Positions 22,406 to 57,815 of a DNA stretch of 64,000 nt are shown in pieces (the stretch's first letter is position 1; each line of letters begins with the position of its first letter). The notes under the pieces are model-generated. The model ran no database searches. It was not told the DNA's origin and saw only the letters and a list, made by a program, of their open reading frames with translations. A program made the translations under genes and the position numbers. Origin of the DNA: Deltaproteobacteria bacterium (GTDB taxonomy: Bacteria > Myxococcota_A > UBA9160 > UBA6930); NCBI GenBank assembly GCA_029261815.1, contig JAJDAQ010000086.1, positions 47,448 through 111,447 on the forward strand, given 5' to 3'.

Positions 22406-22419
22406 TTGAACATGTTTCA
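22406..22419. promoter_or_regulatory. Operator-like palindrome TTGAACATGTTTCA (site 1 of a tandem pair)
   Basis: Fits TnnAACnnGTTnnA. It is an AT-rich patch in the intergenic region upstream of the carotenoid-oxygenase operon. Confidence 0.6.
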
Positions 22420-22424
22420 AGCGA

Positions 22425-22438
22425 TTGAACATGATAAA
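22425..22438. promoter_or_regulatory. Operator-like site TTGAACATGATAAA (site 2, 19 bp downstream of site 1)
   Basis: The left half-site is perfect and the right half degenerate. It overlaps an extended -10-like TGATAAAGT on the + strand. Confidence 0.5.
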
Positions 22439-22514
22439 GTCGGCGGCGCGAGGGCACTCCCGCCCCGCCGACGCGGGCTGTCCGGCCCCTGCTGAGTCCC
22501 GAGAGGAGCGCCAC

Positions 22515-23852
22515 ATGGCTGCCAGTCCCGAAGAGAAGCCCTTCCACCTGCAGGGCAACTTCGCCCCGGTTCCCGAAGAGATGACCGAGGAGAACCTCGA
22601 GGTCATCGGCGCGATCCCGCCCGAACTCTCCGGCCTCTACGTCCGAAACGGCTCGAACCCGGCCACGGGTGAGTCCGAGCACTGGTTCCTGGGCAACGGC
22701 ATGGTCCATGGCGTCCGCCTCGATGGCGGCAAGGCCTCGTGGTACCGGAACCGCTACGTGCAGTCCTTGATGCTCACCGACCCCGATGCCAAGCGGATCT
22801 CGGACAAGGGTGAAATGGACTACCGCGTCTCGGCCGCCAACACGCACGTGCTCAAGCATGGCGGAAAGCTCCTGGCGCTTGAGGAAGGCTCCTTCCCGTA
22901 CGAGCTGACGGATGAGCTCGAGACGGTCGGTGCCTTCAACTACGGCGGCAAGCTGAACACCTCCTTCACTGCGCACCCGCACATCTGCCCCGTCACGGGC
23001 GAGATGATCGGCTTCGGCTACGGCCAGCTTCCGCCCTACCTGACCTATCACCGCATCAGCCCGGACGGCAAGCTCGTGCAGTCGGAGGTCATCGATGTGC
23101 CCGGCCCGACGATGATGCACGACTTCTCGATCTCCGAGAAGCACGCGCTGTTCATGGACCTGCCGGTCGTGTTCGATATGCAGGCCGCACTCGCAGGCAC
23201 CATGCCGTTCAAGTGGAGCGACGACTATGGCGCCCGCATTGGCATCATGCCCCGGACCGGCGGCAACGCCGATGTGAAGTGGTTCGAAATCGATCCCTGC
23301 TATGTCTTCCATACCGTGAACGCATGGGACGAAGGCAACAAGGTGGTGTTCGATGTCTGCCGCATCAGTGAAGTCTGGCGTGACGCAGGCGACATGGGTG
23401 GCGGCAACGGAAAGCAGACGCTGCATCGCTTCACCTTCGACCTCGACACCGGAAACGTCGGTGAACAGACCCTGGACGAACGCGGCATGGACTTCCCGCG
23501 CGTGGCAGATGCCCGGGTCGGCCTGAAGAACCGCTACGCCTACACGCTGCAGTTCGGCGAGCTCGGTTCCTTCGCGGGTCATCTCAAGTTCGACCTCCAG
23601 ACCGGAAAGAGTGAGCTTCACGCCTATCCCGAGGGAGCGTCTCCGGCCGAGGCCGTCTTCGTGGCGGCGCCGGGTGCTGATGCGGACTCCGACGAGGGAT
23701 GGGTCATGAACTACGTCTACGACGACGGCTCCGGAAAGAGCGAACTCGTCATCCTCGACGCACAGAATTTCAGCGGCGATCCGGTGGCCCGGGTCAAGTT
23801 GCCGCAACGCGTTCCCTTCGGTTTCCACGGCAGCTGGGCCGGCGACGCCTAG
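22515..23852 (+). CDS. Carotenoid cleavage oxygenase family protein
   Basis: ATG at 22515 follows GAGAGGAG. N-terminal signature LQGNFAPVPEE...LEVIGAIPPELSGLYVRNGSNP and MMHDFSISEKHALFMDLP. Confidence 0.85.
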   Translation: MAASPEEKPFHLQGNFAPVPEEMTEENLEVIGAIPPELSGLYVRNGSNPATGESEHWFLGNGMVHGVRLDGGKASWYRNRYVQSLMLTDPDAKRISDKGEMDYRVSAANTHVLKHGGKLLALEEGSFPYELTDELETVGAFNYGGKLNTSFTAHPHICPVTGEMIGFGYGQLPPYLTYHRISPDGKLVQSEVIDVPGPTMMHDFSISEKHALFMDLPVVFDMQAALAGTMPFKWSDDYGARIGIMPRTGGNADVKWFEIDPCYVFHTVNAWDEGNKVVFDVCRISEVWRDAGDMGGGNGKQTLHRFTFDLDTGNVGEQTLDERGMDFPRVADARVGLKNRYAYTLQFGELGSFAGHLKFDLQTGKSELHAYPEGASPAEAVFVAAPGADADSDEGWVMNYVYDDGSGKSELVILDAQNFSGDPVARVKLPQRVPFGFHGSWAGDA

Positions 23853-23933
23853 CGAGCCTCCCCTTCAGGTCCGCGCGTCCGTTGGAGGGGTTCCACGGCG
23901 CTTCGGGCCTGCTCTTTGATTCGAGGAGAAATC

Positions 23934-26489
23934 ATGCGCCTTCGCCCGGTGTGCATGTTCATCGTGTTCCTGACGCTCGTGCTCCTGGCGAGTCCCGCGT
24001 TTGCACAGGCAGATGCGGAAACAGACGAACTACGGGATATCGACGAGATCGTCGTCAACATCACCAAGCGGACCGAGTCGCTGCAGGAGGTTTCCGGCAC
24101 CTTCAGCGTCTTCGATTCATCGATCATTCGCGAGACGAATATCGAGCGGATCGCGGATGCGGTGGCGCTGATCCCGAACGTGCAGATCAAGGGCGGCTCG
24201 AACCAGTCGATCTCGATCCGTGGCATCTCGCAGTCGATCGTGTCGCAGTCTCCGGTCGCGCGGCACGTCAACGGCGTCTTCAAGTTCGACAACGAAGCGT
24301 ACACGGGCCACTTCTACGACCTCGAGAACATCCAGGTCGCGCGCGGGCCGTCGGGCACCGTCTATGGCCGCAACGCAACGGCGGGCGCCATCGACTTGCA
24401 ATGGAAGCAGCCCCACGACGAATGGGAAGTCTTCGGCGACATCACGCTGGCGAACACCGACCGCTACCACTTCCGCGGTGGGGTGAACATTCCGTTCCTG
24501 GGCGAAGGGAACGAGAAGTTGATGGGTCGGCTTGTGATCCAGCGCGAAATCCACGACGGCTGGGTCGACAACGAGCTGACCACCCGCAACAACGACCCGG
24601 ACAAGGGCGACGATTTCTTTGCGCGCTTCAGCCTGAAGTCCGTAATCAGCGAAGACACGGAGGTCATCGGTCGCGGCTACTACCACCGACGTGAAGATGG
24701 CATCGCGTCGAGTACCCCGGTCCTGAATACCTTCACCGAGGGCCTGCTGCGATTGCCGGCGCCCCTTGGCGTCGTGCGTACCGATCCCTTCAACGGCTAC
24801 ACAAAGTTCAAGGCCGACATCCTGGCGAACCCGGCCGTGGGCGCCGTCTACACGCTCTTCTCGAACGCGACCGCGGCGAACTGCATGATCATGGCGCCCG
24901 CATGCCCGGATGGCTCGATCCAGACGCCGGATGACGCGCTCGAGTACTTCCTGGTCAACGGAATCAACGCGTTCGGCGGCATCCCCGGCTTCTTCCGGAG
25001 CACCGAAGTCTTCAATACGCCCCAGGCCATCCAGCAGGGCGACCGGCAGACCCGGAATAGCGCCCATCGGCTCGGGGACGGGAAACTCGAAGTCTGGGGC
25101 TTCGACGGTCAGTTCGACACGCGGCTCCCCAACGTTCCGGGCCTCGGCGACGTCGGCTTCACCCTCATCGGGGGCTGGGAGCATTTCGAGCGGAACTTGC
25201 TGACGGATCTCGACGGCACCGAGCTCCTGGTCCTCGATGTATCGAACCAGTTCGAAGAGAATCTCTACACAGCGGAATTCCGGTTCTCATCAGAGGGAGA
25301 CGGACCGGTCAATTGGATCGCCGGCTTCTTCTGGTTCACCCGTGACCGCGACTCGGTCCAGGACACGGTCGTCTCGTTCGTGACGCCGGAGGCTAACTCG
25401 ACGGTGAAGGAGAGCGGCTTCGCGCCGTTCATCAACATCCAATGGGACATCATCGACTCGGTGACGCTTGAGGGCGGTGTCCGCTGGAACCGCGACCGAT
25501 TCTTCATCGACCGACTTGACCCGGCGACCTCGGTGCAGCCTTTCGATCTTCAGCTCCGGGCTGCCGAGAAGTTCCGCGAGACGACCTACGAGGCCAAGAT
25601 CAACTGGGAAATCACGGAAGATCACCACCTCTACGCGAAGTTCGCCCACGGCTACAAGGGTGGGCTTCTCGAGTTGGACATCAGCGGTGCCGTCGCACAG
25701 CTCCAGGCACTGGTCCCGCCGGAAAGCGTCAACTTCAAGAATGTGGCGAGTCCGGAACTGATCGACGCCTTCGAAGTCGGACTGCGGACCCAGTGGCTCG
25801 ACGGCATGATCACGGCCAACCTGACCGCGTTCTACTACGACTACACCGATCTCCAGGTCACCCAGATCACGGGTGCCCAGATCCTCACCGAGAACGCCGG
25901 TGAGGCAACGATCCAGGGGCTCGAGCTTGAACTCGTGGTCGCGCCCACCGAGAACTGGCTGATCATGTTTTCTGCCGGCTACCTCGACGCCGAGTTCGAC
26001 ACCTTCTGCTCCGACGATCCCTTCCAGTTCTTCGCGGTTTCGGAGCCCGGCTGCGCGGCACCGGCCACCAACGCGTTCAATGCTGGCCTCGGACTCGATG
26101 GCAAGAGCAACCTTGCCGGCAACCGGTTGGAAGATTCGCCCGAGTTCGACCTAACCTTCGTCACCCGGTACACGATCGCCCTCGGCGAGTGGGGAACACT
26201 CACCCCCGTTGTCGAGTTCCAATGGACCGACGAATACTTCTCCCGGCCTTACAACCTCCCGATCGACAAGATCGCGTCGCGCTCGAAGACCGACCTGCGG
26301 CTGATCTGGGAAGATGTCGAGAAGAAGTACAGCGTCGAGCTCTTCGTCGAAAATCTCGAGAACGAGACGGTCTTCGGGCAGCGCCTGATCGGTGCCGAGT
26401 TTCAGGGCGGGTTCCCGGTCCAGGTCGGGACGTTCCCGCCGCGGATCTACGGTATCCGGCTCGGCTTCCACTTCGGTGGCGACAGCTGA
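23934..26489 (+). CDS. TonB-dependent receptor (paralog of 4208-6712)
   Basis: ATG at 23934 follows GAGGAG. Signal peptide MRLRPVCMFIVFLTLVLLASPAFA. Plug motifs DEIVVNITKRTESLQEV and IQVARGPSGTVYGRNATAGAIDL. Confidence 0.85.
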   Translation: MRLRPVCMFIVFLTLVLLASPAFAQADAETDELRDIDEIVVNITKRTESLQEVSGTFSVFDSSIIRETNIERIADAVALIPNVQIKGGSNQSISIRGISQSIVSQSPVARHVNGVFKFDNEAYTGHFYDLENIQVARGPSGTVYGRNATAGAIDLQWKQPHDEWEVFGDITLANTDRYHFRGGVNIPFLGEGNEKLMGRLVIQREIHDGWVDNELTTRNNDPDKGDDFFARFSLKSVISEDTEVIGRGYYHRREDGIASSTPVLNTFTEGLLRLPAPLGVVRTDPFNGYTKFKADILANPAVGAVYTLFSNATAANCMIMAPACPDGSIQTPDDALEYFLVNGINAFGGIPGFFRSTEVFNTPQAIQQGDRQTRNSAHRLGDGKLEVWGFDGQFDTRLPNVPGLGDVGFTLIGGWEHFERNLLTDLDGTELLVLDVSNQFEENLYTAEFRFSSEGDGPVNWIAGFFWFTRDRDSVQDTVVSFVTPEANSTVKESGFAPFINIQWDIIDSVTLEGGVRWNRDRFFIDRLDPATSVQPFDLQLRAAEKFRETTYEAKINWEITEDHHLYAKFAHGYKGGLLELDISGAVAQLQALVPPESVNFKNVASPELIDAFEVGLRTQWLDGMITANLTAFYYDYTDLQVTQITGAQILTENAGEATIQGLELELVVAPTENWLIMFSAGYLDAEFDTFCSDDPFQFFAVSEPGCAAPATNAFNAGLGLDGKSNLAGNRLEDSPEFDLTFVTRYTIALGEWGTLTPVVEFQWTDEYFSRPYNLPIDKIASRSKTDLRLIWEDVEKKYSVELFVENLENETVFGQRLIGAEFQGGFPVQVGTFPPRIYGIRLGFHFGGDS

Positions 26490-26535
26490 TCATTCGAACG
26501 CACAAGTCTCTCGAAGCAGACCGGAAGGAGGGACT

Positions 26536-27798
26536 GTGAGTACGGCAGTCGATCTCAACAAGTACGACCCGATGGCGCGGGATGTCCAACAGGACCCCTA
26601 CCCGTACTACGAAGCGCTACGTCGCGACGCGCCAGTGTTCCAGCATCCGAAGTCGGGGATCTACTTCGTGTCGCGCCTGGACACCGTGAACCACGTGTTC
26701 GCGAATCCGGGTCTCTTCTCGTCGCAGTTCAGCAACACGGGTACGCCGCCCGGGTCGCCGGGCCTCGGCGCGAAGCTCAAGGAGATCGCGTCGAAGGGGC
26801 AGCCCCAGATCAACACGATGTTGACGGCTGATCCGCCCGATCAGACGCGTTACCGCAAAACCGTCGGGCGTGCGTTCTCGACACGCAGGATCCTTGCGCT
26901 CGAACCCGTGATTCGGGAAATCACGCGCGACCTCATCGCTCAATGGCCGGACGAGGGGACCGTGGACTTCGTCAACACGTTCTCGGTGCCGTTTCCGGTC
27001 CGCGTGATCGCGCACACCCTCAACATGGCGCCCGAAGCCGTCGACAAGATCAAGTGGTGGTCGGACGCATCGGTCGCCACGCTCGGCGTGGCGCTCAGCG
27101 AAGAGGATCGGATCGCGGCGGCAGAGGGCGTCGTCGAGTCCCACCAGTACTGGGCCCGGGAGTTTGCTGCGCGACTGGCGGAGCCGCGCGACGATTTCCT
27201 CACGGAGCTGACCCAGGCGTCGTTTGTCGAGCAGAGCGGTGATTCCCGGACGCTCGAGATGCCCGAACTCGTGAGCATCATCCTCCAACTCATGGTGGCC
27301 GGGAACGAAACGACCACGAAACTCGTCAACGAGACGGTGAAGCTGTTGATCGAGAATCCCGCGGAGTGGAAGCGGATCCAGGAAGACCCGTCGACGATCC
27401 CGGCCATGGTCGAAGAGGCACTGCGCATGTCGAGCCCCAACCAGGGTCTCTTCCGGATCGTGAAGGAAGACACCGAGCTCGACGGCGTTTCGATCCCGGC
27501 CGGTTCCACGCTCTGGGTGATGTTCGGTGCGGCGAACCGCGACGAGCGGTTCTTTCCCGAGCCCGACAAGTTCGACCCGACGCGCGAGAACGTGCGCGAC
27601 CACATTGCCTTCGGAAAGGGCGCCCACTTCTGCATCGGAGCCCCGCTCGCCCGGCTCGAAGCCAGGGTCTGTTTCGAGGAACTGTCCTCGGCGATCGCCG
27701 ATTGGAAGTTCTCGGACGGAAACACGTTCGAGTACGAGCCGAGCTACATCCTGCGAGGACTCAAGAACCTGTCTCTCGATATCCGGAAGGCACGCTAG
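26536..27798 (+). CDS. Cytochrome P450
   Basis: GTG at 26536 follows GGAAGGAGGG. I-helix LMVAGNETTT, EXXR region and heme loop FGKGAHFCIGAPLA. Confidence 0.9.
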   Translation: MSTAVDLNKYDPMARDVQQDPYPYYEALRRDAPVFQHPKSGIYFVSRLDTVNHVFANPGLFSSQFSNTGTPPGSPGLGAKLKEIASKGQPQINTMLTADPPDQTRYRKTVGRAFSTRRILALEPVIREITRDLIAQWPDEGTVDFVNTFSVPFPVRVIAHTLNMAPEAVDKIKWWSDASVATLGVALSEEDRIAAAEGVVESHQYWAREFAARLAEPRDDFLTELTQASFVEQSGDSRTLEMPELVSIILQLMVAGNETTTKLVNETVKLLIENPAEWKRIQEDPSTIPAMVEEALRMSSPNQGLFRIVKEDTELDGVSIPAGSTLWVMFGAANRDERFFPEPDKFDPTRENVRDHIAFGKGAHFCIGAPLARLEARVCFEELSSAIADWKFSDGNTFEYEPSYILRGLKNLSLDIRKAR

Positions 27799-28587
27799 GT
27801 GCCGGCGCTCGAGGGGCAAGTCGCCGTCGTCATCGGTGGCTCCGGCGGGTTTGGAGAGGGAATCGTAGAGCGATTCGTCGCGGAAGGCGCCACGGTCTGG
27901 ATCGCGGCGCGCGATGAGACGCGTGCCGCGGAAGCTGCCGCCCGGCTTGGCGCCCGTGCCTTCCCCTGCGACATCACGAAGAGCGCCGACGTCAAGGCGC
28001 TGGCCGACCGCGTCCTGTCCGAATCCGGCCGAATCGACATCGCCGTGAACTCAGCCGGCTATGAAGACAACTGCGCGATCGCCGACCTGGAACCCGACCG
28101 CGTGGAGCGCATGGTCGCGGTCCAGTTCACGGGAGCGCTCTACGTCATTCAGCACATGGCGAATGCGATGGCTGCGGGTGGCTCGATCATCACGATCGGC
28201 TCGTTGACAGCGACGCTGACGGCCGATGGCTACGCGCCGTACGCAGGTGCGAAGGCCGGGATCAACCATGCCACGCGCATCGCGGCCGCCGAGTACGGCC
28301 CGAAGGGCGTTCGGGTGAACGTCGTCTCCGCCACGCTCGTCGAAACCCCGATGACGGCCGCGATCACGAATGCGCCCGGTGTGCGAAGAGCGTTCGTGGC
28401 CGAGACGCCACTTGGACGTTTCGGCAGCATCGATGACATCGTCAACGCGGTCTTCTGGTTGGCGTCCGACCAGAGCGCCTTCGTGACCGGACAGAATCTC
28501 CACATCGACGGAGGGACGTCTCTCCGCCGTCTTCCGACGGTGGCGGACTTCATTCGTTCTGCCCAGGAAGAGGCAGCCGAAAGCTAG
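27799..28587 (+). CDS. SDR-family oxidoreductase
   Basis: GTG immediately after the P450 stop. Motifs VAVVIGGSGGFGEG and YAGAKAG. Confidence 0.8.
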   Translation: MPALEGQVAVVIGGSGGFGEGIVERFVAEGATVWIAARDETRAAEAAARLGARAFPCDITKSADVKALADRVLSESGRIDIAVNSAGYEDNCAIADLEPDRVERMVAVQFTGALYVIQHMANAMAAGGSIITIGSLTATLTADGYAPYAGAKAGINHATRIAAAEYGPKGVRVNVVSATLVETPMTAAITNAPGVRRAFVAETPLGRFGSIDDIVNAVFWLASDQSAFVTGQNLHIDGGTSLRRLPTVADFIRSAQEEAAES

Positions 28588-29318
28588 GCGGGCGGGTCCG
28601 GTCCCAGGTAGACCGAGATCTCCACAGCGTCCGGCACGTTCGAGTACTCGATATGCGCTTCGCGCGTTTCTGACTCGTAGCGTCCACAGCCGCGTACGTA
28701 GCCGAGGTAATCCTCGGGAGCGAAGACGTCGCCGGTATTGTCGGCAACGATGATCGCGCCCGGCTGGATCAAACCGTGAGCTTCCAGGCTTTCGAGGTCT
28801 GCGCGGTAGAGATCCTTCCAGTGGTCCAGGAAGACCAGGTCGAAGGGGCCGTCCAGCTTGGGGATCTCCTCGTCCGACGCTGCGCATCGCAGGTCGACGC
28901 GGTCGGCGAAGCCCGCGCGCGCGATGTTGTCGCTTGCTGCTTCGTAGGCGTTCTGGTCCTTTTCGATCGAGACCAGCCGTCCGCCGTCGCCGAGCCGCTG
29001 GCAGATCATGATCGCCGAATAGCCGCAGTATGCGCCGAGTTCGAGCACGCGCGCATCTCCACGCAAGCGCCCGATCATTTCCGTGAGAAGAGGCCCCTTG
29101 TCGGGGCCGACGCTCATCAGGAAGCGCTCTTCGACCGCATAACGGTCGAGCGCCGCCAGGACACCCTCGGCGTCGCCGGGCGAAACGCGCTCGGCGACGT
29201 AGTCGCGTGCGCGCAGTGCCCTGGGGGGCGCGCCCGTCACCCGATCGATCGCAAAGTGGAGGACGTTTCGTGCCGCCCAGGGAAGGGCCTTGGGCGTGAG
29301 CATTCTCGAGAGGTTCAT
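28584..29318 (-). CDS. Class I SAM-dependent O-methyltransferase (catechol-O-methyltransferase-like)
   Basis: Motif I VLELGAYCGYSA, then DLVFLDHWKD and IIVADN. The start at 29318 (MNLSRML) is chosen to leave a divergent promoter gap. The listed ATG at 29384 is an alternative. Confidence 0.75.
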   Translation of the reverse strand: MNLSRMLTPKALPWAARNVLHFAIDRVTGAPPRALRARDYVAERVSPGDAEGVLAALDRYAVEERFLMSVGPDKGPLLTEMIGRLRGDARVLELGAYCGYSAIMICQRLGDGGRLVSIEKDQNAYEAASDNIARAGFADRVDLRCAASDEEIPKLDGPFDLVFLDHWKDLYRADLESLEAHGLIQPGAIIVADNTGDVFAPEDYLGYVRGCGRYESETREAHIEYSNVPDAVEISVYLGPDPPA

Positions 29319-29399
29319 GCAGACAGTCTGGCACACTCGGGCCGGCTCGGATGCTAGGGTCGCCTCTCGTCTCGTGACCTCCAACGGAAGGAGTCTCGT

Positions 29400-30282: not shown

Positions 30283-30296
30283 TTTCACGCGTTTAA
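30283..30296. promoter_or_regulatory. Operator-like site TTTCACGCGTTTAA (site 1 of a tandem pair)
   Basis: Degenerate match to the shared palindrome, upstream of the TetR gene. Confidence 0.4.
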
Positions 30297-30301
30297 ACGA
30301 A

Positions 30302-30315
30302 TTGAATCGGTTAAA
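30302..30315. promoter_or_regulatory. Operator-like site TTGAATCGGTTAAA (site 2, 19 bp downstream), overlapping -10-like TAAAAT
   Basis: It ends 8 nt before the GTG start of the TetR gene at 30324. The same GTTAAAATCC string precedes the second TetR gene. Confidence 0.5.
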
Positions 30316-30323
30316 ATCCCCGC

Positions 30324-31016
30324 GTGCGATTGATGGCCCAGCAGAAACTCGAGCGACGGGAACGCATCCTTGCGGCCGCGCGCGAGTTGATCGCCGAGTT
30401 GCCTTACAAGGAAATCACGGTGCGCGAGCTGGCCCGGCGCTGTCGCGTCTCGGTGCCCACGCTGTACAACCAGTTCGGCGGCAAGGACGCCTTGCTGGCA
30501 GCGGCGGTCGAGTCGCAATTCCGCGAGGCCCTTTCGGAGATGGTCCCCCCGGAAGAACTGCCGGGCGCAGAGCGGATCCTGGGCATGGTCTCGCGGGTCG
30601 CCCGCCAGACGACGGAGCTCGCGGAGTACCACGCTTCGCTGATCCAGGCATTCGCCGAAGAACAACACCAGACCGAGGCAATTCAGCAATCCCTGGCCGT
30701 TGAACTCACCCGGTCGTTCGCCCAGGAACTCGAGGCGATGGCGGCGAAACGTCAGTTGGCCGAGTGGGTCGATTGCGGGGTGCTGGCCGTCCAGCTCACA
30801 ACCGCGTGTATCAGTGCATCCGTGATCTGGGGCCAGGGAATGGTCGACGACGAGGGGCTCGACGCGTTCATGCGTCACGGGGCCGCGACGCCGATCCTGG
30901 CATGCGCCCGCGGACCGGTTCGCGCAGAGCTCGAGGCCGTTGTGCGGGAGGCGCAGGATCATCTCCGTGAGGCGCTGACGATTCCCGAGGACGCGGCCAC
31001 CGAAGAAACCGCGTAG
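30324..31016 (+). CDS. TetR-family transcriptional regulator (paralog of 46943-47617)
   Basis: HTH region ITVRELARRCRVSVPTLYNQFGGKDALL. The N-terminus MRLMAQQKLERRERIL aligns with MTLLAQQMAERRERIL of the paralog, which supports the GTG start. Confidence 0.85.
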   Translation: MRLMAQQKLERRERILAAARELIAELPYKEITVRELARRCRVSVPTLYNQFGGKDALLAAAVESQFREALSEMVPPEELPGAERILGMVSRVARQTTELAEYHASLIQAFAEEQHQTEAIQQSLAVELTRSFAQELEAMAAKRQLAEWVDCGVLAVQLTTACISASVIWGQGMVDDEGLDAFMRHGAATPILACARGPVRAELEAVVREAQDHLREALTIPEDAATEETA

Positions 31017-31044
31017 TCCACGCGAAACAGGCGAAGGAGCCATC

Positions 31045-31809
31045 ATGTCCATCGAATCGCTATTTGACCTGTCCAACGACGTTGCCGTGGTGACCGGTGC
31101 CGGTCGCGGGATCGGCGAAGGGATTGCCAAGGTCTTCGCCGAAGCGGGAGCCGCAGTGGTCTGCGCCGCGCGCCGCGCCGAAGAAATCGAACGTGTCGCC
31201 AAGGACATCCGCGATGCCGGCGGCCGCGCGATCGCCGTGCCGACGGACGTGACAGACGAAGACGCCGTCGACGCCTTGGGTGCGCGCGCGGTGTCCGAGT
31301 TCGGCTCGCTCGATATCTGGGTGAACAACGCGGGCGGCTCGCCGATCCAGTCGCCGCTCGTCGATCTGCCCCGAGAGGAGTGGGACGCGACCCTTCGCCT
31401 GAACCTGACGGCGCCGTGGGTGTGCACGCGCGCTGCGTCGAAACACATGGGCGAGAGCGGAGGTCGCATCCTCCATATTTCGTCGCGCGCCGGTTCGGAT
31501 CCGGTCCCTGGAAGCGGCCACTACTCCGCCGCGAAGGCAGGTCTCAACAACATGACCGTTTCGATGGCGCGCGAACTGGGGCCGCGGATTCGCGTCAACA
31601 CGATCGAGCCCGGTGCCGTGCCGACCGAGATCATGATGCAAGCGCTTCGGTTGAAGGAAGACGACCTTCCGCAACTTGAGAAGGCTCTCAAACTCCCGGC
31701 CGGGCGCCTGGGCACACCGCGCGACCTCGGCGCGGCGGCCCTCTACCTCTGCTCTCCGGCTGGCGAGTGGGTGACCGGAATCATCCTGCCCGTCAGCGGT
31801 GGGATGTAG
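31045..31809 (+). CDS. SDR-family oxidoreductase
   Basis: VAVVTGAGRGIGEG, NNAG, YSAAKAG; RBS GAAGGAG. Confidence 0.85.
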   Translation: MSIESLFDLSNDVAVVTGAGRGIGEGIAKVFAEAGAAVVCAARRAEEIERVAKDIRDAGGRAIAVPTDVTDEDAVDALGARAVSEFGSLDIWVNNAGGSPIQSPLVDLPREEWDATLRLNLTAPWVCTRAASKHMGESGGRILHISSRAGSDPVPGSGHYSAAKAGLNNMTVSMARELGPRIRVNTIEPGAVPTEIMMQALRLKEDDLPQLEKALKLPAGRLGTPRDLGAAALYLCSPAGEWVTGIILPVSGGM

Positions 31810-42253: not shown

Positions 42254-42255
42254 GG

Positions 42256-43263: not shown

Positions 43264-43270
43264 GGCGACG

Positions 43271-44551: not shown

Positions 44552-44554
44552 GTC

Positions 44555-46919: not shown

Positions 46920-46933
46920 TTTATCGTGTTAAA
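46920..46933. promoter_or_regulatory. Operator-like site TTTATCGTGTTAAA overlapping extended -10-like TGTTAAAAT
   Basis: It ends 9 nt before the ATG of the TetR gene at 46943. TAAAAT at 46930-46935 lies 7 nt from the start codon and no Shine-Dalgarno is visible. Confidence 0.55.
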
Positions 46934-46942
46934 ATCCTTCGC

Positions 46943-47904: not shown

Positions 47905-48663
47905 ATGGATCTTGGACTCAACGGACGGAAGGTGCTCGTCACCGCCGCAACACGTGGCATCGGACTCTCCATCGCCCAGCACTTCGCCGACGAAGGTTGC
48001 GACGTCGCGCTCTGCGCGCGCGGTGAAGGCGGAATCGAGACCGCTACCAAGGACCTGGAAGCACGCGGCGCCAAGGTGTTCGCCCGGGCGGTCGACGTGG
48101 CCGACGGCGGCGCCTTCAAGCAGTTCGTCGCGGATGCGGCCGATGCACTCGGTGGCCTCGACATCTTTGTCAGCAACGCATCCGGTGGCGCCGGCCCGGG
48201 CGAGAAGGCCTGGCAGGCGAGCTTCGATGTCGACATGATGGGCGCCGTTCGCGGCGTGGATGCGGCGCTGCCCAGCCTCGAAGCCTCGGACGCGGGAAGC
48301 GTGATCTTCATCAGCTCCACCGCCGCGCTCGAATACCTCGGCGTCCCGCAGGCCTACAACGCGATGAAGGCCGCCCTGATCGCGCACGCGGGGGACATGA
48401 GCCAGGCGTTGGCGCCGAAGGGCGTTCGCGTGAACGTGATCTCGCCCGGTCCCGTCTACTTCGAAGGCGGAAACTGGGAGATGATCAAGCAGGCCATGCC
48501 CGCGATGTATGAAGGTGCCCTCGCGCAGTGCGCGATCGGCCGCATGGGCGCGCCCGAAGAGATTGCACGCGCGGTCGTGTTCCTCGCGAGCCCGGCCGCC
48601 AGCTTGATCACCGGTGCGAACCTCGTCTGCGACGGCGGTTTCACCAAGCGGATGCCGTTCTAG
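47905..48663 (+). CDS. SDR-family oxidoreductase (core; may start at 47614)
   Basis: ATG at 47905 follows GAAGGAAGGAAAGG. Motifs KVLVTAATRGIGLS and YNAMKAA. Confidence 0.85.
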   Translation: MDLGLNGRKVLVTAATRGIGLSIAQHFADEGCDVALCARGEGGIETATKDLEARGAKVFARAVDVADGGAFKQFVADAADALGGLDIFVSNASGGAGPGEKAWQASFDVDMMGAVRGVDAALPSLEASDAGSVIFISSTAALEYLGVPQAYNAMKAALIAHAGDMSQALAPKGVRVNVISPGPVYFEGGNWEMIKQAMPAMYEGALAQCAIGRMGAPEEIARAVVFLASPAASLITGANLVCDGGFTKRMPF

Positions 48664-48723
48664 TCCGAAGTACGCATCGTCGTACCGGTTCGCCCTGCGC
48701 GGCCGGACCGATGGGAGATTGTC

Positions 48724-50091
48724 ATGGCCATCGAACCCCTGATCGAAATCGAAGCCGGGCAGGGCCCGCGCTCATCGGGCGTGACCTACCAGGACCTGCT
48801 CGACGCAGAGACCCGCGAGGTTCCCGAGGTGCTGCGCATGCAGGCCGCGCGGGAGACCCCGGTCGTGCGGGTGCCCATCGACCGGTACACGTCGCAGGAG
48901 TTCCACGACCTCGAGGTCGAGAAGGTCTGGAAGAAGGTCTGGCAGTTCGCCTGCCGGGAGGAGCAGATCCCCGAGCCCGGTGACCATACGGTCTACGACA
49001 TTGCGAACCTGTCGATCCTGGTCCTTCGCGACGAAAGCGGAGAGATTCGGGCGCACCACAACGTCTGCCTGCATCGCGGCCGCGCGCTGAAGGACTTCGA
49101 CGGCAACAGCAGCGACCTCCGCTGCCCGTTTCACGGCTGGACGTGGAACCTTGACGGCTCGCTGAAGGAGATCCCCTGCCGCTGGGACTTTCCGGATGTC
49201 GACCAGGACGACTATGCGCTCCCGCCGGTGAAGGTCGCGCTCTGGGGCGGCTTCGTGTTCATCAATCTGGACCCGGACTGCGAGCCCTTCGAGAACCATA
49301 TCGGCGATCTGGGCAAGCACTTCGAGCGTTGGCCGCTCGAGAAGCGATACACCGAAGCCCACGTTGCCAAGCTCCTGCGCTGCAACTGGAAGGTGGCCCA
49401 GGAGGCCTTCATGGAGGCCTACCACGTCGTCGGGACCCATCCGCAGATTCTGGCTGGAATCGGCGATGCGAATACCCAGTACGATGCCTGGGACACGTTC
49501 TCGCGCGCGATGACGCCTAACATGACGCCGAGCCCCCACCTGACCGAGGAGCCCACAGAGCAGGAGATGATCAACTCCATGCTTTCGGTGAGTCTCGACG
49601 AGGGGCCGATGTTCAACGTGCCCGAAGACATGACGGCGCGGCAGATGCTGGGCCAGATGACGCGGATGCAGCTCCAGGCGCAGGTGCCGTCGGTGCAAGA
49701 ATTGACCGACGCCGAGCTGGCCGATTCGTTCTACTACACGCTGTTCCCGAATTTTCATCCGTGGGGCGCGTACAACAAGATCGTCTACCGCTTCCGGCCG
49801 TACAAGAACAAGCCGAACGAGTGCATCATGGAAGTGCTCTTCCTGTCGCCGTTCCGCGGCCGCAGGCCTCCGGCGGCCAAGGTCAAGTGGATCGATTTCG
49901 ATGCGCCGTGGAGCGACGCGATTCCCGAGTTCGGAAGCCTGGCCAAGGTCTTCTCGCAGGATGCGTACAATATTCCGCATGTGCAGAAGGGCCTCGAAGC
50001 GGCGCAGCACACGCACGTGACCTTCGCGAACTACCAGGAAACGAAGATCCGTCACTTCCATACGCTGCTCGAGAAGTATCTGCAGGCGTAG
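48724..50091 (+). CDS. Rieske [2Fe-2S] non-heme-iron oxygenase, alpha subunit
   Basis: Rieske motif CLHRG...CPFHGW, mononuclear-iron motif EAYHVVGTHP; 455 aa. No beta subunit is adjacent. Confidence 0.85.
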   Translation: MAIEPLIEIEAGQGPRSSGVTYQDLLDAETREVPEVLRMQAARETPVVRVPIDRYTSQEFHDLEVEKVWKKVWQFACREEQIPEPGDHTVYDIANLSILVLRDESGEIRAHHNVCLHRGRALKDFDGNSSDLRCPFHGWTWNLDGSLKEIPCRWDFPDVDQDDYALPPVKVALWGGFVFINLDPDCEPFENHIGDLGKHFERWPLEKRYTEAHVAKLLRCNWKVAQEAFMEAYHVVGTHPQILAGIGDANTQYDAWDTFSRAMTPNMTPSPHLTEEPTEQEMINSMLSVSLDEGPMFNVPEDMTARQMLGQMTRMQLQAQVPSVQELTDAELADSFYYTLFPNFHPWGAYNKIVYRFRPYKNKPNECIMEVLFLSPFRGRRPPAAKVKWIDFDAPWSDAIPEFGSLAKVFSQDAYNIPHVQKGLEAAQHTHVTFANYQETKIRHFHTLLEKYLQA

Positions 50092-50106
50092 GTTCGAGGG
50101 AAGATC

Positions 50107-50304
50107 GTGGCGTTTGAAGTGCAGGTGGACCGCACCCGTTGCCGCGGTTCGAGGTCATGCGTGCGGCGCGCGCCGGGTACTTTTTCGCTCGATGAGGAGC
50201 GTATCGCGGTCGTTGCAGAGCGTCCGACGGACTCCGAAGAGGCGATTCGCGAAGCCGCTGCCGTTTGTCCATTCTTTGCGATCTCTACCAAGGAGACTCG
50301 ATGA
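50107..50304 (+). CDS. Small single-cluster ferredoxin
   Basis: 65 aa with Cys pattern C-x5-C ... CP (RCRGSRSC ... AAVCPFFAI). GTG follows GAGGGAAG. Confidence 0.7.
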   Translation: MAFEVQVDRTRCRGSRSCVRRAPGTFSLDEERIAVVAERPTDSEEAIREAAAVCPFFAISTKETR

Positions 50305-51062
50305 CTGATGCCCCGAAGGAACGTGTGGACGCCGTCCTGATCGCAGGTGGCCGTTATCACGACATCGACTATGCGCGTGGGGAACTCCTGAAGCTGTTGG
50401 CCGAGCACCCGCATGTCCGTGTGACGGTCGACTCGGACTACCGGAATACCGAGGCCATCGAAGCCGCGGATTTCCTCATCACGTATACGTGCGACGTGCG
50501 TCCGACCGACGCGCAGCAAGAGGTCCTGGCCGACTACGTTTCCAGCGGCGGCCGCTGGATGGCGCTGCACGGAACGAACTCGGCCCTCGACTTCGTCGAG
50601 AATGGTGTCGACGCGCCGCGCTCCGCGTTTCCGAAGATGGCCCATACGCTGGGCAGTCAGTTCGTGGCACACCCGCCCATCCAGAAATACAAGGTCGAGA
50701 AGCGGAGTCCGGATCATCCGCTGGTGTCTGGTGTCGATGAGTTCGAAACCGACGACGAGCTCTACCTCTGCGAGTATCACGATTTCGACAAGCTCGAAGT
50801 CCTGCTCGATTGCCACTACGCCGGCAAGGCGGAGGGTTTCATCGAAGCCAACTGGGACGATGCAGACCGCCACCTCGTGATGTACCTGCGACCGTTGGGG
50901 GAAGGGGCCGTCCTCTACAACACCTTGGGCCACTGCCGAGGGCATTGGGATATGCGGCCGGCCATGGACTACTACCCGGTCGTCGAACGCTGCTCCTGGG
51001 AGAAGCCCGAGTACCATGAGCTTCTCCGGCGGGGGATTCGTTGGTGCCTTCAGGAACTCTAG
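50301..51062 (+). CDS. ThuA-domain protein
   Basis: ATG at 50301 follows AAGGAG and overlaps the ferredoxin stop (ATGA). Motifs VLIAGGRYHDIDYAR, WMALHGTNS, ELYLCEYHD. Confidence 0.65.
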   Translation: MTDAPKERVDAVLIAGGRYHDIDYARGELLKLLAEHPHVRVTVDSDYRNTEAIEAADFLITYTCDVRPTDAQQEVLADYVSSGGRWMALHGTNSALDFVENGVDAPRSAFPKMAHTLGSQFVAHPPIQKYKVEKRSPDHPLVSGVDEFETDDELYLCEYHDFDKLEVLLDCHYAGKAEGFIEANWDDADRHLVMYLRPLGEGAVLYNTLGHCRGHWDMRPAMDYYPVVERCSWEKPEYHELLRRGIRWCLQEL

Positions 51063-54376: not shown

Positions 54377-54441
54377 GGGCTTGGGCCTCGGTTTAGGATG
54401 GCGACGCGCGGTCGCCAGAACCTCGGGTAGGTGGAGCGTTC

Positions 54442-54456
54442 ACTCATTCAATGAGT
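54442..54456. promoter_or_regulatory. Inverted repeat ACTCATT-C-AATGAGT upstream of rimK
   Basis: Perfect 7-bp arms in an AT-richer patch, 66 nt upstream of the rimK start codon. Confidence 0.25.
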
Positions 54457-54567
54457 TGCGCTTCGTCTCGAGCGAAAACGCGACGTTCGGCAGGTCTTCT
54501 GTGCCCAGCTTGTGGCGAACCGTCAGAGCATCACCGACTTGACGGGCCCGTGCCCGCGCCGGCTGGC

Positions 54568-56745
54568 CTATGCAGGCGGCGCTGCCTCTGCGACCGCGAA
54601 GACGTTGACCGGGATCGCGCTCTGCCGGGCCATACCCGTGATCGGGTCGTAGTCGGTCGCGTCGTCGACCAGTCGATTGGTGGCGGCCCCCATCTCGCGC
54701 ACCTTGGCATCTTCGTTGGGGGTATCGCCCCAGGCGTGGGCCATCGAGATGACGCCACGACGGATTTCGTCACTGGCTTCGACGACGGCGGGCACGCTGG
54801 CGTGCTCCGAGCGGATCTCGACGAGGTCGCCGGTCGCGATTCCGAGGGCATCGAGGTCTTCCGGGTTCATGAAGGCCGGGTTGGTCGTGCCTTCCTTTCG
54901 GATGGCGTCGAGGTACTGGCCCGAGGAATTGTAGACGTGGCGCAACCGTCGCGAGATGAGGCGATGGCTGAAGCTGTCGCCGTCCTCGCCGTAACCGGCA
55001 CCATCGGGCGTGAAGGTCTCCGCCCGGATCTCGTGCAGGTCATTGCAGACATCGACCGGCCCCACGTCGAGTTTTCCTTCGTTGCCGGGGTCAGCCGGCT
55101 GGACCGTGATGGCGACATCGTCGTAGACCTGTCCGCCCGGGGCTTCACGAATCTCGGCCAGGTCCACCCGCGACCGCGGCAGTACCCGCCTCATCACGTC
55201 GAGCTTCGACGGCTTTGCATCGACGGGCAGTTCGCCGCCGGCGAGGGGGATCGGCGTGCCGAGACGGTGCGCCATCCCCCAGTAGATCTCCCACTCTTCG
55301 ATGGCGTCGAAGCCGGGGTCGGCCACGGCCTGCGTGTAGTGCGCGTACGGCATCGAGTACCACGAGTCGGTCAGGATGTTCACGTCTTCGCGCTCGATGT
55401 GGATCTTGGGAGCGATGACGTAGTCGGCCAGCTTGGCCGTCGCCGAAAGTCGGATGTCGGCACAGACCAGCAGGTCGAGTTCCGCGATCGCCCTCAGTGC
55501 CTTCTCCTGGTTCGGCCACGCGACGACGGGGTTGCCCCCCATGCAGAACAGGGCGCGGACCTGTCCGTCGCCCGGCATCAGGATTTCGTCGGCCAGGGCC
55601 GCCGTCGGCATCTCGCCCACACCCCCGATGAAGATCTCGCTGAGACCGCGAACGCGTGACTGCGCGCCGATGCCCCAAGCGGGGAAGGGCGGGATCGCCT
55701 GGGCCTTGCGCGGCGTCGGCGAAAGGATGCCCGGGTTCGGGACGGCATCGCCCTCGCGGTTTACACGTCCACATAACGTCGCGATGGCGAGTACGAAGTG
55801 CTCGGTGACATTTCCGCGCGGGGCCATGTTGGGCCCCGTGCCGCAACTCACGCCGCCGCGTGTGCCGCCGGCAAAGAGGCGGGCGGCTTCGACGACCTGG
55901 GCCGCCGGAACGCCGGCGCGGCTCTCGACGTACTCGGGCGTGAACGCCTCGACGGCGTCTCGCAGTCGATCGACACCATCGACGTGCGCGTTGCAGAACG
56001 CTTCGTCGTGGAGGCCTTCGCTCAGGATCACGCGCGCGATTCCGGCGAGCAGGGTCGGGTCCTCTCCGGGCTTCACCGCCAGGTGGAGGTCTGCGCGCCG
56101 CGCGACTTCGGTCCTTCGCGGGTCGATCACGATGACCTTCAGGCCACGCTTCTTGGCGTCGCGATAGCTCTTGGACGGGCTGAACGACGGAATTCCGCCG
56201 TAGGGCGAGAATGCCGAGACCAGCGGGTTGTTGCCGACCACCAGGATCGTGTCGGCACTCTCGAAACTATGGCCACCGGCACTCCAGAGTCCGTGGCGCG
56301 CCATCGCGACGAACTTGGCCGGCTGGTCGATCGTGACGCTCGTGTAGAACGACGGTGACTCGATCCCGGTATGCCAGCCGCGTGCGACGGCGAGTTGCGC
56401 CGAATTCTGGAACGAGTGGGTGCCGAGGTAGCTGGCGATGGCGCGCGGCCCGGACTCGGCGATGAGGCCCTTGAGGCGATCGGCGATCTCGTCCAGCGCC
56501 TGTTCGGTCGGGATCTCCTCGAAGTCGCCGGAAGACGTTCGCTTCAAGGACGAGCGCAGGCGCTCGGGATGGTTGGTGAGATCGGGCATCTGGCGGCCCT
56601 TGATGCAGGTGTAGCCGCCGTAGACGGGATCAGACGTGTCACCGCGGACCGCGACGAGCCGTCCGTCCGAGTCGACATCGGCCTCCATCGCGCAGTAGGC
56701 GTGGCAGATTCGGCAGTACGTCTTGTGTGTCGTGAGACTCATCAT
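54568..56745 (-). CDS. Molybdopterin (bis-MGD) oxidoreductase, cytoplasmic, with an N-terminal [4Fe-4S] motif (paralog of 17186-19369)
   Basis: The start MMSLTTHKTY at 56745/56742 follows GAGGAA. Motif CRICHAYC...CIKG. It aligns collinearly with the first copy (VIDPRR, PGEDPT.LAGI, GTGPNMA.RGN). The listed ORF extends upstream through an Arg-rich non-coding-like stretch. Confidence 0.8.
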   Translation of the reverse strand: MMSLTTHKTYCRICHAYCAMEADVDSDGRLVAVRGDTSDPVYGGYTCIKGRQMPDLTNHPERLRSSLKRTSSGDFEEIPTEQALDEIADRLKGLIAESGPRAIASYLGTHSFQNSAQLAVARGWHTGIESPSFYTSVTIDQPAKFVAMARHGLWSAGGHSFESADTILVVGNNPLVSAFSPYGGIPSFSPSKSYRDAKKRGLKVIVIDPRRTEVARRADLHLAVKPGEDPTLLAGIARVILSEGLHDEAFCNAHVDGVDRLRDAVEAFTPEYVESRAGVPAAQVVEAARLFAGGTRGGVSCGTGPNMAPRGNVTEHFVLAIATLCGRVNREGDAVPNPGILSPTPRKAQAIPPFPAWGIGAQSRVRGLSEIFIGGVGEMPTAALADEILMPGDGQVRALFCMGGNPVVAWPNQEKALRAIAELDLLVCADIRLSATAKLADYVIAPKIHIEREDVNILTDSWYSMPYAHYTQAVADPGFDAIEEWEIYWGMAHRLGTPIPLAGGELPVDAKPSKLDVMRRVLPRSRVDLAEIREAPGGQVYDDVAITVQPADPGNEGKLDVGPVDVCNDLHEIRAETFTPDGAGYGEDGDSFSHRLISRRLRHVYNSSGQYLDAIRKEGTTNPAFMNPEDLDALGIATGDLVEIRSEHASVPAVVEASDEIRRGVISMAHAWGDTPNEDAKVREMGAATNRLVDDATDYDPITGMARQSAIPVNVFAVAEAAPPA

Positions 56746-56777
56746 GGTTCCTCTACGGAGTGGAATGTACCGGTGGC

Positions 56778-57749
56778 CTAACTTCCTGCGAGCTTGGCGA
56801 CGACGGGTGCGAACGCGTCCATGACTTCGGCGCCTACGGAGACGTAGGAAATGCCGAAGGCTTCGCGGCGCCGTTGCAGCTCCTCGACGATCTCGTCGAC
56901 GCTGCCGAAGAGCGCGTGCGGATGCGCGCGCATCTCGTCCGGCGTGATCCCGAATGCGCCTGCCATTCCCTCGGCGACGGCGCCCTGTCCTTCGCCGATG
57001 AAGGCAAAGTAGGCCGCGATCTCGAGCTCCAGGTCGTCGAACCGGTCGCCGGCGGCATCGCGGATCCATCCGACCTTGTTCGCCGTCTCTTCAGCCGTGC
57101 CTGTCTTCACACCGTCGGGACCGATCACGCCCGATTGGTTGTTGAAGTTGAGGCTGACGATGTCGGCTTCGCGGGCGGCCAGGGACAGCACGCGCTTGCC
57201 GCCGCCGCCAATCATGATCGGCGGGTGCGGTTTCTGGATCGGCTGCGGGGCCGCCTCGTAGCCGCTGATGTTGATGTGGTCTCCCTTGACGTCGATCTGG
57301 CCGGGCGCGAAATGCGCTTTCATGAACGCCACGGTTTCCGCGAGGCGGGAGATGCGGACGGGTGCCGGATCGAAGTCGAGCCCGATGGCTTCGTACTCGC
57401 CCGCAAGCCACCCCGCCCCGAGACCGAGTTCCAGGCGACCGCCGGAGAGCAGGTCCAACGTCGCCGCTTCCTTCGCCAGGACGGCCGCCGGTCGGTAGTC
57501 GATACAGAAAACGCGGCAGCCCACCTTCAGGGTCGACGTCGCTTCCGCCGCTACCGCGATCGCGGGAACGGCCGCCAATGTCTGCAGCGGATGATTCGTT
57601 GCTTCGAGCGCGGGGCCCGGCCCAAGGATGTGGTCGGCCAGATGCAGGGCTGAGAAGCCGAGGCCTTCGGCCTTGCGGGCGCGCTCTCGCCACTCGTCGC
57701 CGGAGTCTGCGCTGAAGCTCTGGACCGAGAATCGGAACGGATGGGGCAT
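56778..57749 (-). CDS. Luciferase-like (LLM class) flavin/F420-dependent oxidoreductase
   Basis: The start at 57749 follows AGGAG. Motifs FSALHLADHI, GRLELGLGAGW, KPHPPIMIGGGG. Confidence 0.8.
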   Translation of the reverse strand: MPHPFRFSVQSFSADSGDEWRERARKAEGLGFSALHLADHILGPGPALEATNHPLQTLAAVPAIAVAAEATSTLKVGCRVFCIDYRPAAVLAKEAATLDLLSGGRLELGLGAGWLAGEYEAIGLDFDPAPVRISRLAETVAFMKAHFAPGQIDVKGDHINISGYEAAPQPIQKPHPPIMIGGGGKRVLSLAAREADIVSLNFNNQSGVIGPDGVKTGTAEETANKVGWIRDAAGDRFDDLELEIAAYFAFIGEGQGAVAEGMAGAFGITPDEMRAHPHALFGSVDEIVEELQRRREAFGISYVSVGAEVMDAFAPVVAKLAGS

Positions 57750-57801
57750 GGCGGACTCCTGGCGCAAGGCAGCGGTGTCGATCGGACTGGAATCTTGCCG
57801 C

Positions 57802-57815
57802 TTGAACGTGTTAAA
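57802..57815. promoter_or_regulatory. Operator-like palindrome TTGAACGTGTTAAA
   Basis: This is the best match to the shared motif. It lies in the divergent region between the LLM gene (57749, minus) and the SnoaL-like gene (57905, plus) and overlaps TGTTAAAAC. Confidence 0.6.

Follow-up and report, generated by a model that had tools for sequence, protein, structure and literature searches.

A 14-bp palindrome that very probably serves as the operator of two related TetR-family repressors occurs in eight copies in a 64,000-nucleotide stretch of DNA (hereafter the window) from a Deltaproteobacteria bacterium (assembly GCA_029261815.1, contig JAJDAQ010000086.1, positions 47,448 to 111,447). The copies stand before genes for uptake and oxidative catabolism and before the genes of the two regulators themselves, which are referred to as TetR1 (30324-31016, + strand) and TetR2 (46943-47617, + strand). 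It is likely that dimers of both proteins use these palindromes, that the palindromes overlap promoter elements and that the genes concerned are induced by a metabolite of the pathway. The assignment to TetR regulators is strongly supported because the motif tracks one TetR family in genomes that were picked by the protein alone.

Palindromic sites and regulators in the window

The GC content of the window is 64-66%, and its genes were mapped with a self-trained codon log-likelihood caller, the output of which agrees with the results of Pfam. All eight 14-mers were confirmed as exact matches at 22406, 22425, 30283, 30302, 38858, 41218, 46920 and 57802, all of them fall between called genes, and their consensus is TT[T/G]AAC-N2-GTT[A/C]AA. 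These positions had been proposed, together with their intergenic location, in a sequence-only reading of the same DNA and were found to be correct. The proposal that the copies are the most AT-rich patches of the window was also borne out, as 18 of the 19 14-mers with at least 11 A or T overlap them, and so was the absence of any copy from the first 22 kb, which extends for a further ~7 kb leftward on the source contig (L072), beyond the left end of the window. A palindromised position weight matrix built from the eight sites gave them scores of 17.5-26 bits, the next best match in the 64 kb being an intragenic one of 14.1 bits. With this matrix the intergenic regions are bimodal, in that the best site reaches 19 bits or more in each of the six regions that had been named as carrying sites and no more than 7.8 bits in any of the others, several of which have a similarly low GC content. 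C6 and G9 each reach 0.86 in the matrix, three sites have no mismatch in the core and the other five have one each, and the flanks differ between copies. The consensus, when up to three mismatches were allowed, gave 17 strand-hits in the window against 1.36 expected from shuffles, and the pattern TNNAACNNGTTNNA occurred five times against 0.19 expected. Three of these five occurrences are the sites at 22406, 41218 and 57802, and the other two are GC-richer and lie within TonB-dependent receptor genes (25242 and 37055). The latter two (25242-25255 and 37055-37068; TCGAACCAGTTCGA and TCGAACGTGTTGAA) are also exact matches to TnnAACnnGTTnnA, score no more than 13 bits with the eight-site matrix and are probably due to chance; some intragenic sites do exist for the mycobacterial regulator KstR (PMC1995591). 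A scan of the window against Rfam found no RNA family.

Four of the sites form two pairs, both with a spacing of 19 bp. Site 1 (TTGAACATGTTTCA, 22406-22419) is the distal and site 2 (TTGAACATGATAAA, 22425-22438) the proximal member of a pair before a carotenoid-oxygenase operon, and an orthologous pair precedes the orthologue of the oxygenase gene in L001, one of the comparison loci described below. The pair before TetR1 consists of site 3 (TTTCACGCGTTTAA, 30283-30296), which is distal, and site 4 (TTGAATCGGTTAAA, 30302-30315), which is proximal and the weakest of the eight. Orthologous pairs were found in L001, L165 and most of L002-L036; the 19-bp distance of site 4 from site 3 is conserved, and the same degenerate left arm occurs in L001 and L165 with GTTAAAGT. 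Site 5 (TTGCACGTGTTAAA, 38858-38871) lies between a TonB-dependent receptor gene on the - strand and an SDR gene on the + strand, a similar sequence, TTGCACGCGATAAA, being present upstream of a receptor gene in L165. The best site, site 6 (TTTAACATGTTTAA, 41218-41231), is in the divergent region between the genes for an enoyl-CoA hydratase (ECH) and an E1-alpha subunit, site 7 (TTTATCGTGTTAAA, 46920-46933) precedes TetR2, and site 8 (TTGAACGTGTTAAA, 57802-57815) is in the divergent region between the genes for a luciferase-like monooxygenase (LLM) and a SnoaL-like protein.

Apart from TetR1 and TetR2, none of the 51 called genes encodes a regulator. The two proteins score 53.9 and 51.3 bits, respectively, with the Pfam model TetR_N (PF00440; cut-off 24) and are paralogues with 30% identity, TetR2 reaching 161 bits against a profile of the TetR1 family. 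The GTG at 30324 was taken as the start of TetR1, since it gives an N-terminus, MRLMAQQ, that lines up with the form MDLxTEQ in the family alignment. An AlphaFold2 model of TetR1 (mean pLDDT 93.7) has 11 helices in the all-helical two-domain TetR fold, and all 50 of the matches listed by Foldseek against the PDB are TetR-family proteins. The recognition helices of the two proteins are near-identical (VSVPTLYN in TetR1 and VTVPTIYN in TetR2), the form in the family being V[S/T]VPT[L/I]YN, and the operator ends 8 nt ahead of the start codon of TetR1 and 9 nt ahead of that of TetR2. Homologues of TetR1 were found in metagenome-derived sequences only, and nearly all of the subfamily members met in this study come from uncultured bacteria. 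When clustered at 50% identity, the subfamily to which TetR1 and TetR2 both belong by their sequences has 111 clusters at E <= 1e-30 and 2,146 at E <= 1e-10; it is a subfamily without a characterised member.

The motif in genomes selected by the regulator

A profile built from 31 TetR1 homologues was used to obtain 71 loci from GTDB species representatives, which were selected by the protein only. The loci are labelled as Myxococcota/Deltaproteobacteria, Pseudomonadales and other Gammaproteobacteria, Rhodobiaceae, Microthrixaceae, Acidobacteriota, Thermodesulfobacteriota and Binatia, and their GC content ranges from 50 to 74%. Across them 66 TetR-family genes could be scored, and 55 of these had a site of 16 bits or more in the 160 bp upstream, in 43 cases as a pair 18-20 bp apart and in 12 as a single copy. 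For the closest relatives (36-68% identity to TetR1) the motif was found no more than ~120 bp upstream in 33 of 36 loci, mostly as pairs 19 bp apart, and distances of 19 bp (31 cases) and 18 bp (15 cases) dominate the spacing of neighbouring sites. When the window and the loci were taken together (1.19 Mb, 11% of it non-coding), 91 of the 101 matches of at least 18 bits were in non-coding DNA, so that the motif is far from being equally frequent inside genes, a point on which a check had been called for. Composition-matched shuffling of each non-coding segment gave 0.4 matches, compared to 87 observed.

As a control for circularity, all 5-mer inverted repeats were enumerated in the 66 foreign TetR-upstream regions with the window excluded. 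The top inverted repeats were TTTAA-N4-TTAAA and TTAAC-N2-GTTAA, which were present in 18-19 of the 66 regions compared to 5-7 of 952 control upstream regions, and the enumeration thus recovers TTTAAC-N2-GTTAAA. A second matrix, made from the foreign TetR-upstream instances with the AAC..GTT core as its sole constraint, recovers T1, T2 and T/G3, with T1 and A14 both at 0.93 around the imposed core; in the two matrices position 2 is T in 0.83-0.86 of sites and position 3 is T or G, with T in about half. Seven of the eight sites are the top seven matches of the window with this foreign matrix (15.2-27.2 bits, the next being 9.2).

Conservation was also seen at the level of individual operons. 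Orthologues of TetR2 with 57-66% identity, plus a 50% identical relative in L167, sit in syntenic clusters in L164-L167, and the orthologous regulators of the genomes in which sites recur are only 57-68% identical. The sequence upstream of the TetR2 orthologues is identical, as TTTATCGTGTTAAA-AT, in L164 and L166 and is TTGAACATGTTAAA-AT in L165, and in an alignment of these upstream regions the motif is the main conserved block. L164, L166 and L167 also have a site between their divergent hydratase and E1-alpha genes, and when this region of the window was aligned with those of L164 and L166 site 6 was the only long conserved block. Site 8 is identical in the orthologous LLM/SnoaL divergent region of L164, and in this closely similar pair of regions the motif falls inside the longest identical block. 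L165 has a site pair upstream of its TetR1 orthologue and sites upstream of receptor genes. Sites precede orthologues of the carotenoid-oxygenase gene in L001 (as a pair), L002 and L013, P450 genes in L013 and L167, Rieske and SDR genes in L038 and L044, and a receptor gene and an acyl-CoA ligase gene in L043. Conservation upstream of orthologous operons, which the sequence-only reading had left to be checked, is therefore seen at the TetR2, ECH/E1, LLM/SnoaL and carotenoid-oxygenase positions. It is established that the sites exist, that they are not distributed at random and that their association with the TetR family and with orthologous target genes is conserved.

Probable overlap of operator and promoter

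In all six regions one arm of a palindrome plus the following two bases can be read directly as TAAAnN, with TG at -15/-14 in five of the six and the final T, which lies outside the palindrome, also in five, so that the suggestion that the right arm reads like an extended -10 was a sound one. The putative extended -10 elements are TG-A-TAAAGT in site 2 (22432-22440, +), GG-T-TAAAAT in site 4 (30309-30317, +; the right arm supplies TAAAAT at 30312-30317, 6 nt ahead of the GTG start), TG-T-TAAATT in site 5 (38865-38873, +), TG-T-TAAAAT in site 6 (41216-41224, -; facing the hydratase gene), TG-T-TAAAAT in site 7 (46927-46935, +; followed by 7 nt and then ATG) and TG-T-TAAAAC in site 8 (57809-57817, +). 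The invariant block upstream of the TetR2 orthologues, TGTTAAAAT, is two bases longer than the palindrome and therefore fits an overlapping -10. Both TetR genes begin 6-7 nt after a TAAAAT hexamer (30312-30326 and 46930-46945), with the same layout in L001, L165 and L166, a distance which suggests that the transcripts of both are probably leaderless; should this be the case, the TetR1 mRNA would be a leaderless message with a GTG start. The proximal operator ends 1-23 nt ahead of the start codon in 44 of 56 family genes. The geometry is different in Pseudomonadales orthologues, where, judged by eye, the left arm TTGAAC precedes a good -10 by 17 bp and this -10 in turn lies 6-7 nt ahead of the ATG. 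With either arrangement core promoter elements would be covered by the operator, as might be expected for repression by occlusion.

Relationship to KstR, PsrA and other known regulators

KstR (Rv3574) is the TetR-family repressor of mycobacterial cholesterol/lipid catabolism; its operator is TAGAAC-N2-GTTCTA, with the core TnnAACnnGTTnnA, and lies over the -10 in the promoter of kstR, which is autoregulated from this site, with further copies in many intergenic regions (Kendall et al. 2007, PMC1995591). The present system shares with it the 14-bp palindrome with an AAC-N2-GTT core, a site within the promoter of the regulator's own gene that overlaps the -10, and a catabolic cluster with many intergenic sites, some of them divergent and at least one region having two copies. 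Three of the eight sites in the window (22406, 41218 and 57802) fit the core TnnAACnnGTTnnA exactly, as had been claimed for the three best sites. When a profile of the TetR1 family was searched against solved proteins, the best match was KstR of M. tuberculosis (55 bits, E 5e-14, profile positions 5-131), followed by Mce3R (51 bits) and, after a gap, by matches from 42 bits down, and the stretch shared with KstR is ERRxRIL...GYEAV..R..A.R..V.V.TLY..F..K..LL. Foldseek, on the other hand, ranked KstR 10th among TetR folds, with near-equal E-values and without separation from EthR and other TetRs, and therefore the structure adds nothing beyond the TetR fold.

There are also clear differences. 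The half-site is TT[T/G]AAC here, with T at position 2 in 83-86% of sites, and TAGAAC in KstR; the system is hosted by uncultured Gram-negative lineages; operator pairs 18-19 bp apart are the rule before the regulator gene; and the regulon would include TonB-dependent receptors, a carotenoid oxygenase, an acetoin-dehydrogenase-like complex and luciferase-like monooxygenases. The putative regulon contains nothing recognisable as a gene for KshA, KstD or an Hsa protein, its Rieske protein matching glycine-betaine monooxygenase and aromatic dioxygenases best, not KshA, and the hydrolase domain of its E2 protein reaching 46 bits compared to an HsaD cut-off of 400. With the KstR equivalog model (NCBIfam NF033703, cut-off 280 bits) TetR1 scored 33.4, TetR2 42.0 and five family members from other phyla 30-47 bits, scores so far under the cut-off that TetR1 and TetR2 were rejected as orthologues of KstR. 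The description of the regulon as KstR-like therefore stands for the form of the operator and for the nearest solved relative by profile, but not for the identity of the proteins or for cholesterol genes. The system appears to work like that of KstR and may be distantly related to it, but is not a KstR. A CoA-thioester ligand is conceivable, given the acyl-CoA ligase and enoyl-CoA hydratase in the putative regulon.

PsrA, a fatty-acid-responsive TetR-family regulator of Pseudomonas with the operator C/GAAAC-N2-4-GTTTG/C, is autoregulated via a palindrome overlapping its own promoter and controls fatty-acid degradation genes (review, PMC13104628). The likeness lies in the TetR-family regulator, the palindrome over its own promoter and a half-site ending in AAC, whereas the half-site is [T/G]AAC with a fixed 2-bp spacer here and AAAC with a 4-bp spacer in P. 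aeruginosa (GAAAC-N4-GTTTC). TetR2 scored 27 bits with the NCBIfam model for PsrA and TetR1 gave no match at E <= 1e-5. An operator of the PsrA type was rejected on the grounds that the base before AAC is T or G and not A and that the spacer is fixed at 2 bp. With TetR/tetO and QacR/IR1 the system has in common the TetR_N helix-turn-helix, the all-helical two-domain fold, a palindrome in the regulator's own and adjacent target promoters and two adjacent operator sites at some promoters. It differs from them in that the targets are catabolic and uptake genes in six regions over ~35 kb rather than one efflux gene, and in that one motif apparently serves both paralogues. The literature was searched for the motif in connection with TetR, for operators of the KstR kind in Gammaproteobacteria and for clusters of carotenoid-oxygenase, TonB and TetR genes, and nothing relevant was found.

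Alternative explanations

An important consideration is how far the evidence permits other explanations, and a number of observations weigh against the interpretation of the palindromes as TetR operators or limit its reach. The whole case is built on sequence comparison. Promoter-bearing intergenic regions within 22-58 kb that have no site (29304-29399, 34194-34509, 50092-50300 and 54377-54567) mean that the cluster is not one uniform regulon, and 11 of the 66 family genes in other genomes have no detectable site. Site 30302 (TTGAATCGGTTAAA) is weak, with one core mismatch and 3.9 bits with the foreign strict-core matrix, and may be mainly a -10 element. A promoter scan of 22-41.5 kb did not return a full sigma-70 consensus (-35 plus -10) for any of the sites, and the assignment of promoters thus depends on the -10-like hexamers and their conservation. 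Lastly, a metagenome scan with the loose paired pattern TTNAACNNGTTNAA-N5-TTNAACNNGTTNAA yielded 80 loci, of which 14 are beside a family TetR gene, the remainder being either unrelated tandem direct repeats of 19 nt or DNA of low GC content that has no bacterial genes nearby and is probably eukaryotic. The loose pattern is unspecific and this motif-first scan is weakly supportive.

A 19-nt tandem direct repeat, TTCAACTTGTTAAACYTTG, was observed in at least 2-4 copies in L091, L096, L104, L106, L112, L115, L119, L135 and L140, and on the opposite strand, as TTTAACAAGTTGAACARRG, in L087, L100, L109, L118, L127-L129 and L132. The contigs with TTCAACTTGTTAAACYTTG arrays are metagenomic, with a GC content of about 0.6, and several are labelled as human gut; no TetR gene was detected in the loci with the repeat arrays.

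It could be supposed that the AT-rich boxes are mere promoter elements, either extended -10 or -35 sequences of the housekeeping sigma factor, and that their palindromic look is incidental. The -10-like reading of an arm plus two bases in six regions, the Pseudomonadales left arm TTGAAC at 17 bp from a good -10 and the position of the sites as the most AT-rich spots of the window are all compatible with this, but a one-sided promoter element would leave the symmetrical conservation of both arms (C6 and G9 each 0.86) unexplained. Other promoter-bearing intergenic regions do without the motif (<=7.8 bits), pairs 18-19 bp apart misfit a promoter layout, and the scan of 22-41.5 kb found no full sigma-70 promoter at the sites. 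Moreover, the motif follows one TetR family across phyla with differing promoters, taking the -10 role in some and the -35 role in others, and an explanation by promoter elements only is accordingly considered very unlikely. Co-localisation alone is no proof of what binds, and the palindrome might instead be read by an unlinked factor, for example of the CRP/FNR type, with the TetR genes as mere members of its regulon. Boxes of the FNR type have the consensus TTGAT-N4-ATCAA, which the outer TTGA...TCAA of some copies fits; yet positions 5 and 10 are A and T here in place of T and A, the conservation of C6 and G9 is strong, and T and G are equally common at position 3. Given that the motif stands directly before the TetR-family gene in 55 of 66 cases in many phyla, which is the usual signature of autoregulation, and that no further regulator is encoded in the window, a binder of this kind is improbable. 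A third explanation would be that AT-rich words have clustered by chance in relaxed intergenic DNA or that the copies are a short dispersed repeat of the mobile-element type, but nothing beyond the AT-richness of the sites speaks for it. It is refuted by the shuffles (5 and 17 observed against 0.19 and 1.36 expected, and 87 against 0.4 in non-coding DNA) and by the recurrence of sites at orthologous positions despite regulators that are only 57-68% identical; the differing flanks also argue against it, and its probability is practically nil.

Putative target genes and substrate

Under the preferred interpretation, that of operators of TetR1 and TetR2, the putative targets can be read from the gene map. 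Sites 22406 and 22425 precede an operon for a carotenoid-cleavage oxygenase, a TonB-dependent receptor, a P450 and an SDR (22515-28587, +; Pfam). Sites 30283 and 30302 head TetR1 and an SDR gene (30324-31809, +); the latter (31045-31809, +) is probably co-transcribed with TetR1 across a 28-bp gap, an order also found in L165. Site 5 has as its putative targets a TonB-dependent receptor gene (36349-38721, -) and an SDR gene (38938-39717, +). From the region of site 6 a putative operon for the enoyl-CoA hydratase and a SnoaL-like protein runs leftward (39724-41168, -), its synteny and site being kept in L164 and L166, and another runs rightward for acetoin-dehydrogenase-like E1-alpha, E1-beta and E2 subunits, an acyl-CoA ligase and an SDR (41285-46846, +), its synteny and site being found in L164, L166 and L167; the E2 consists of a lipoyl domain plus an alpha/beta hydrolase. 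Site 46920 heads TetR2 and, downstream of it in what is probably the same transcription unit, an SDR of 349 aa, a Rieske oxygenase and a ThuA-like protein (47614-51062, +), and the order TetR2-SDR-Rieske(-ferredoxin)-ThuA is conserved in L164-L167. Site 8 stands between a putative operon for the luciferase-like monooxygenase and a molybdopterin oxidoreductase (54568-57749, -), a pair which is found with its site in L164 as well, and one for a SnoaL-like protein, an ABM monooxygenase and a 1078-aa protein of unknown family (57905-62047, +), the order of which is the same in L164. The 1078-aa open reading frame (58811-62047, +) has no Pfam match and no sequence match to solved structures; in L164 an open reading frame of 1080 aa occupies the equivalent place after the SnoaL and ABM genes, and that in the window is probably the last gene of a motif-controlled operon.

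The putative targets thus include three TonB-dependent receptors, a P450, a Rieske oxygenase, luciferase-like and ABM-type oxygenases and several SDRs, and further an acyl-CoA ligase, an enoyl-CoA hydratase and an acetoin-dehydrogenase-like C-C cleaving complex. The nearest solved relative of the carotenoid oxygenase of the first operon is a carotenoid 9,10-dioxygenase (311 bits, compared to 172 bits for lignostilbene dioxygenases), and its best NCBIfam model is that of an apocarotenoid-cleaving dioxygenase. This gene content, taken together with that of the neighbouring site-free 22 kb, suggests that the putative regulon may serve the uptake and degradation of carotenoid or isoprenoid-type lipids. 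The term lipid-catabolic, which had been applied to the regulon, is plausible, and the genes appear to point more specifically to carotenoid/isoprenoid-type substrates.

Among the products of the site-free 22 kb are a protein of the phytanoyl-CoA dioxygenase family, a biotin-dependent acyl-CoA carboxylase with fused domains, acyl-CoA dehydrogenases and a thiolase that has a DUF35 partner. The carboxylase is a single polypeptide of 1141 aa (10693-14118, +) made up of a biotin carboxylase, a biotin-carrier domain and a carboxyltransferase, and its neighbours (8536-17184) are the phytanoyl-CoA dioxygenase-family gene, an MFS transporter gene, two acyl-CoA dehydrogenase genes and an enoyl-CoA hydratase gene. 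The set at 8536-17184 resembles a module for the breakdown of branched or isoprenoid acyl-CoA, and no TetR motif was found in it. At 2655-4204 (-), also in the site-free part of the window, a ChsH2-type DUF35 gene comes after a thiolase-like one (Thiolase_C_1); pairing of a thiolase with DUF35 is known from the cleavage of steroid side-chains and of aromatic CoA-esters. There are two DUF3604 genes (2-1801 and 34510-36282), each adjoining a TonB-dependent receptor gene, and two molybdopterin-oxidoreductase genes (17186-19288 and 54568-56745) without recognisable partner subunits nearby.

Proposed mechanism and significance

Binding, repression, release by a ligand and the identity of the substrate are inferred from what is normal in the TetR family. 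Dimers of TetR1 and TetR2 would bind the 14-bp palindromes, and a bound dimer would block RNA polymerase at the extended -10 that the operator covers; at the carotenoid-oxygenase and TetR1 promoters the two operators 19 bp apart would leave room for two dimers. A pathway metabolite would then release the repressor and turn on about nine transcription units, plus the regulators' own genes. The induced units would provide for uptake via TonB-dependent receptors and for the oxidative, CoA-dependent breakdown of a hydrophobic substrate, probably of the carotenoid/isoprenoid type. It is tempting to assign paired operators to TetR1 and single ones to TetR2, a division that holds in the window and in L165, but pairs are also common before distant TetR2-like family members, which speaks against it, and the division is a speculation held with low confidence.

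A wider proposal, which incorporates this division and must be regarded as rather doubtful, is that readers of AAC-N2-GTT form a wide and ancient TetR group of which KstR would be only the actinobacterial cholesterol branch. The subfamily described here, with its VSVPTLYN helix, operators typically paired 18-19 bp apart and leaderless genes, might then be the counterpart in uncultured marine and soil Myxococcota and Gammaproteobacteria, with TetR1 on paired and TetR2 on single operators. It might control an undescribed route by which carotenoids, apocarotenoids or isoprenoids are taken up and broken down; the route would employ a TonB-dependent receptor, an enzyme resembling carotenoid 9,10-dioxygenase, a P450 and a C-C cleavage complex like acetoin dehydrogenase, and would include CoA-dependent steps.

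Autoregulation by a TetR repressor through a palindrome placed over a promoter is a textbook principle, and the switch proposed here is a new example of this familiar kind. This gives a concrete regulator-operator pairing for a TetR subfamily that has no characterised member, and with a known ligand the operators and repressors would be potential biosensor parts. In metagenome-assembled genomes the motif can serve to mark out the regulon and may thereby lead to the genes of an unstudied catabolic pathway, the hydrophobic substrates of which are probably carotenoids or isoprenoids.

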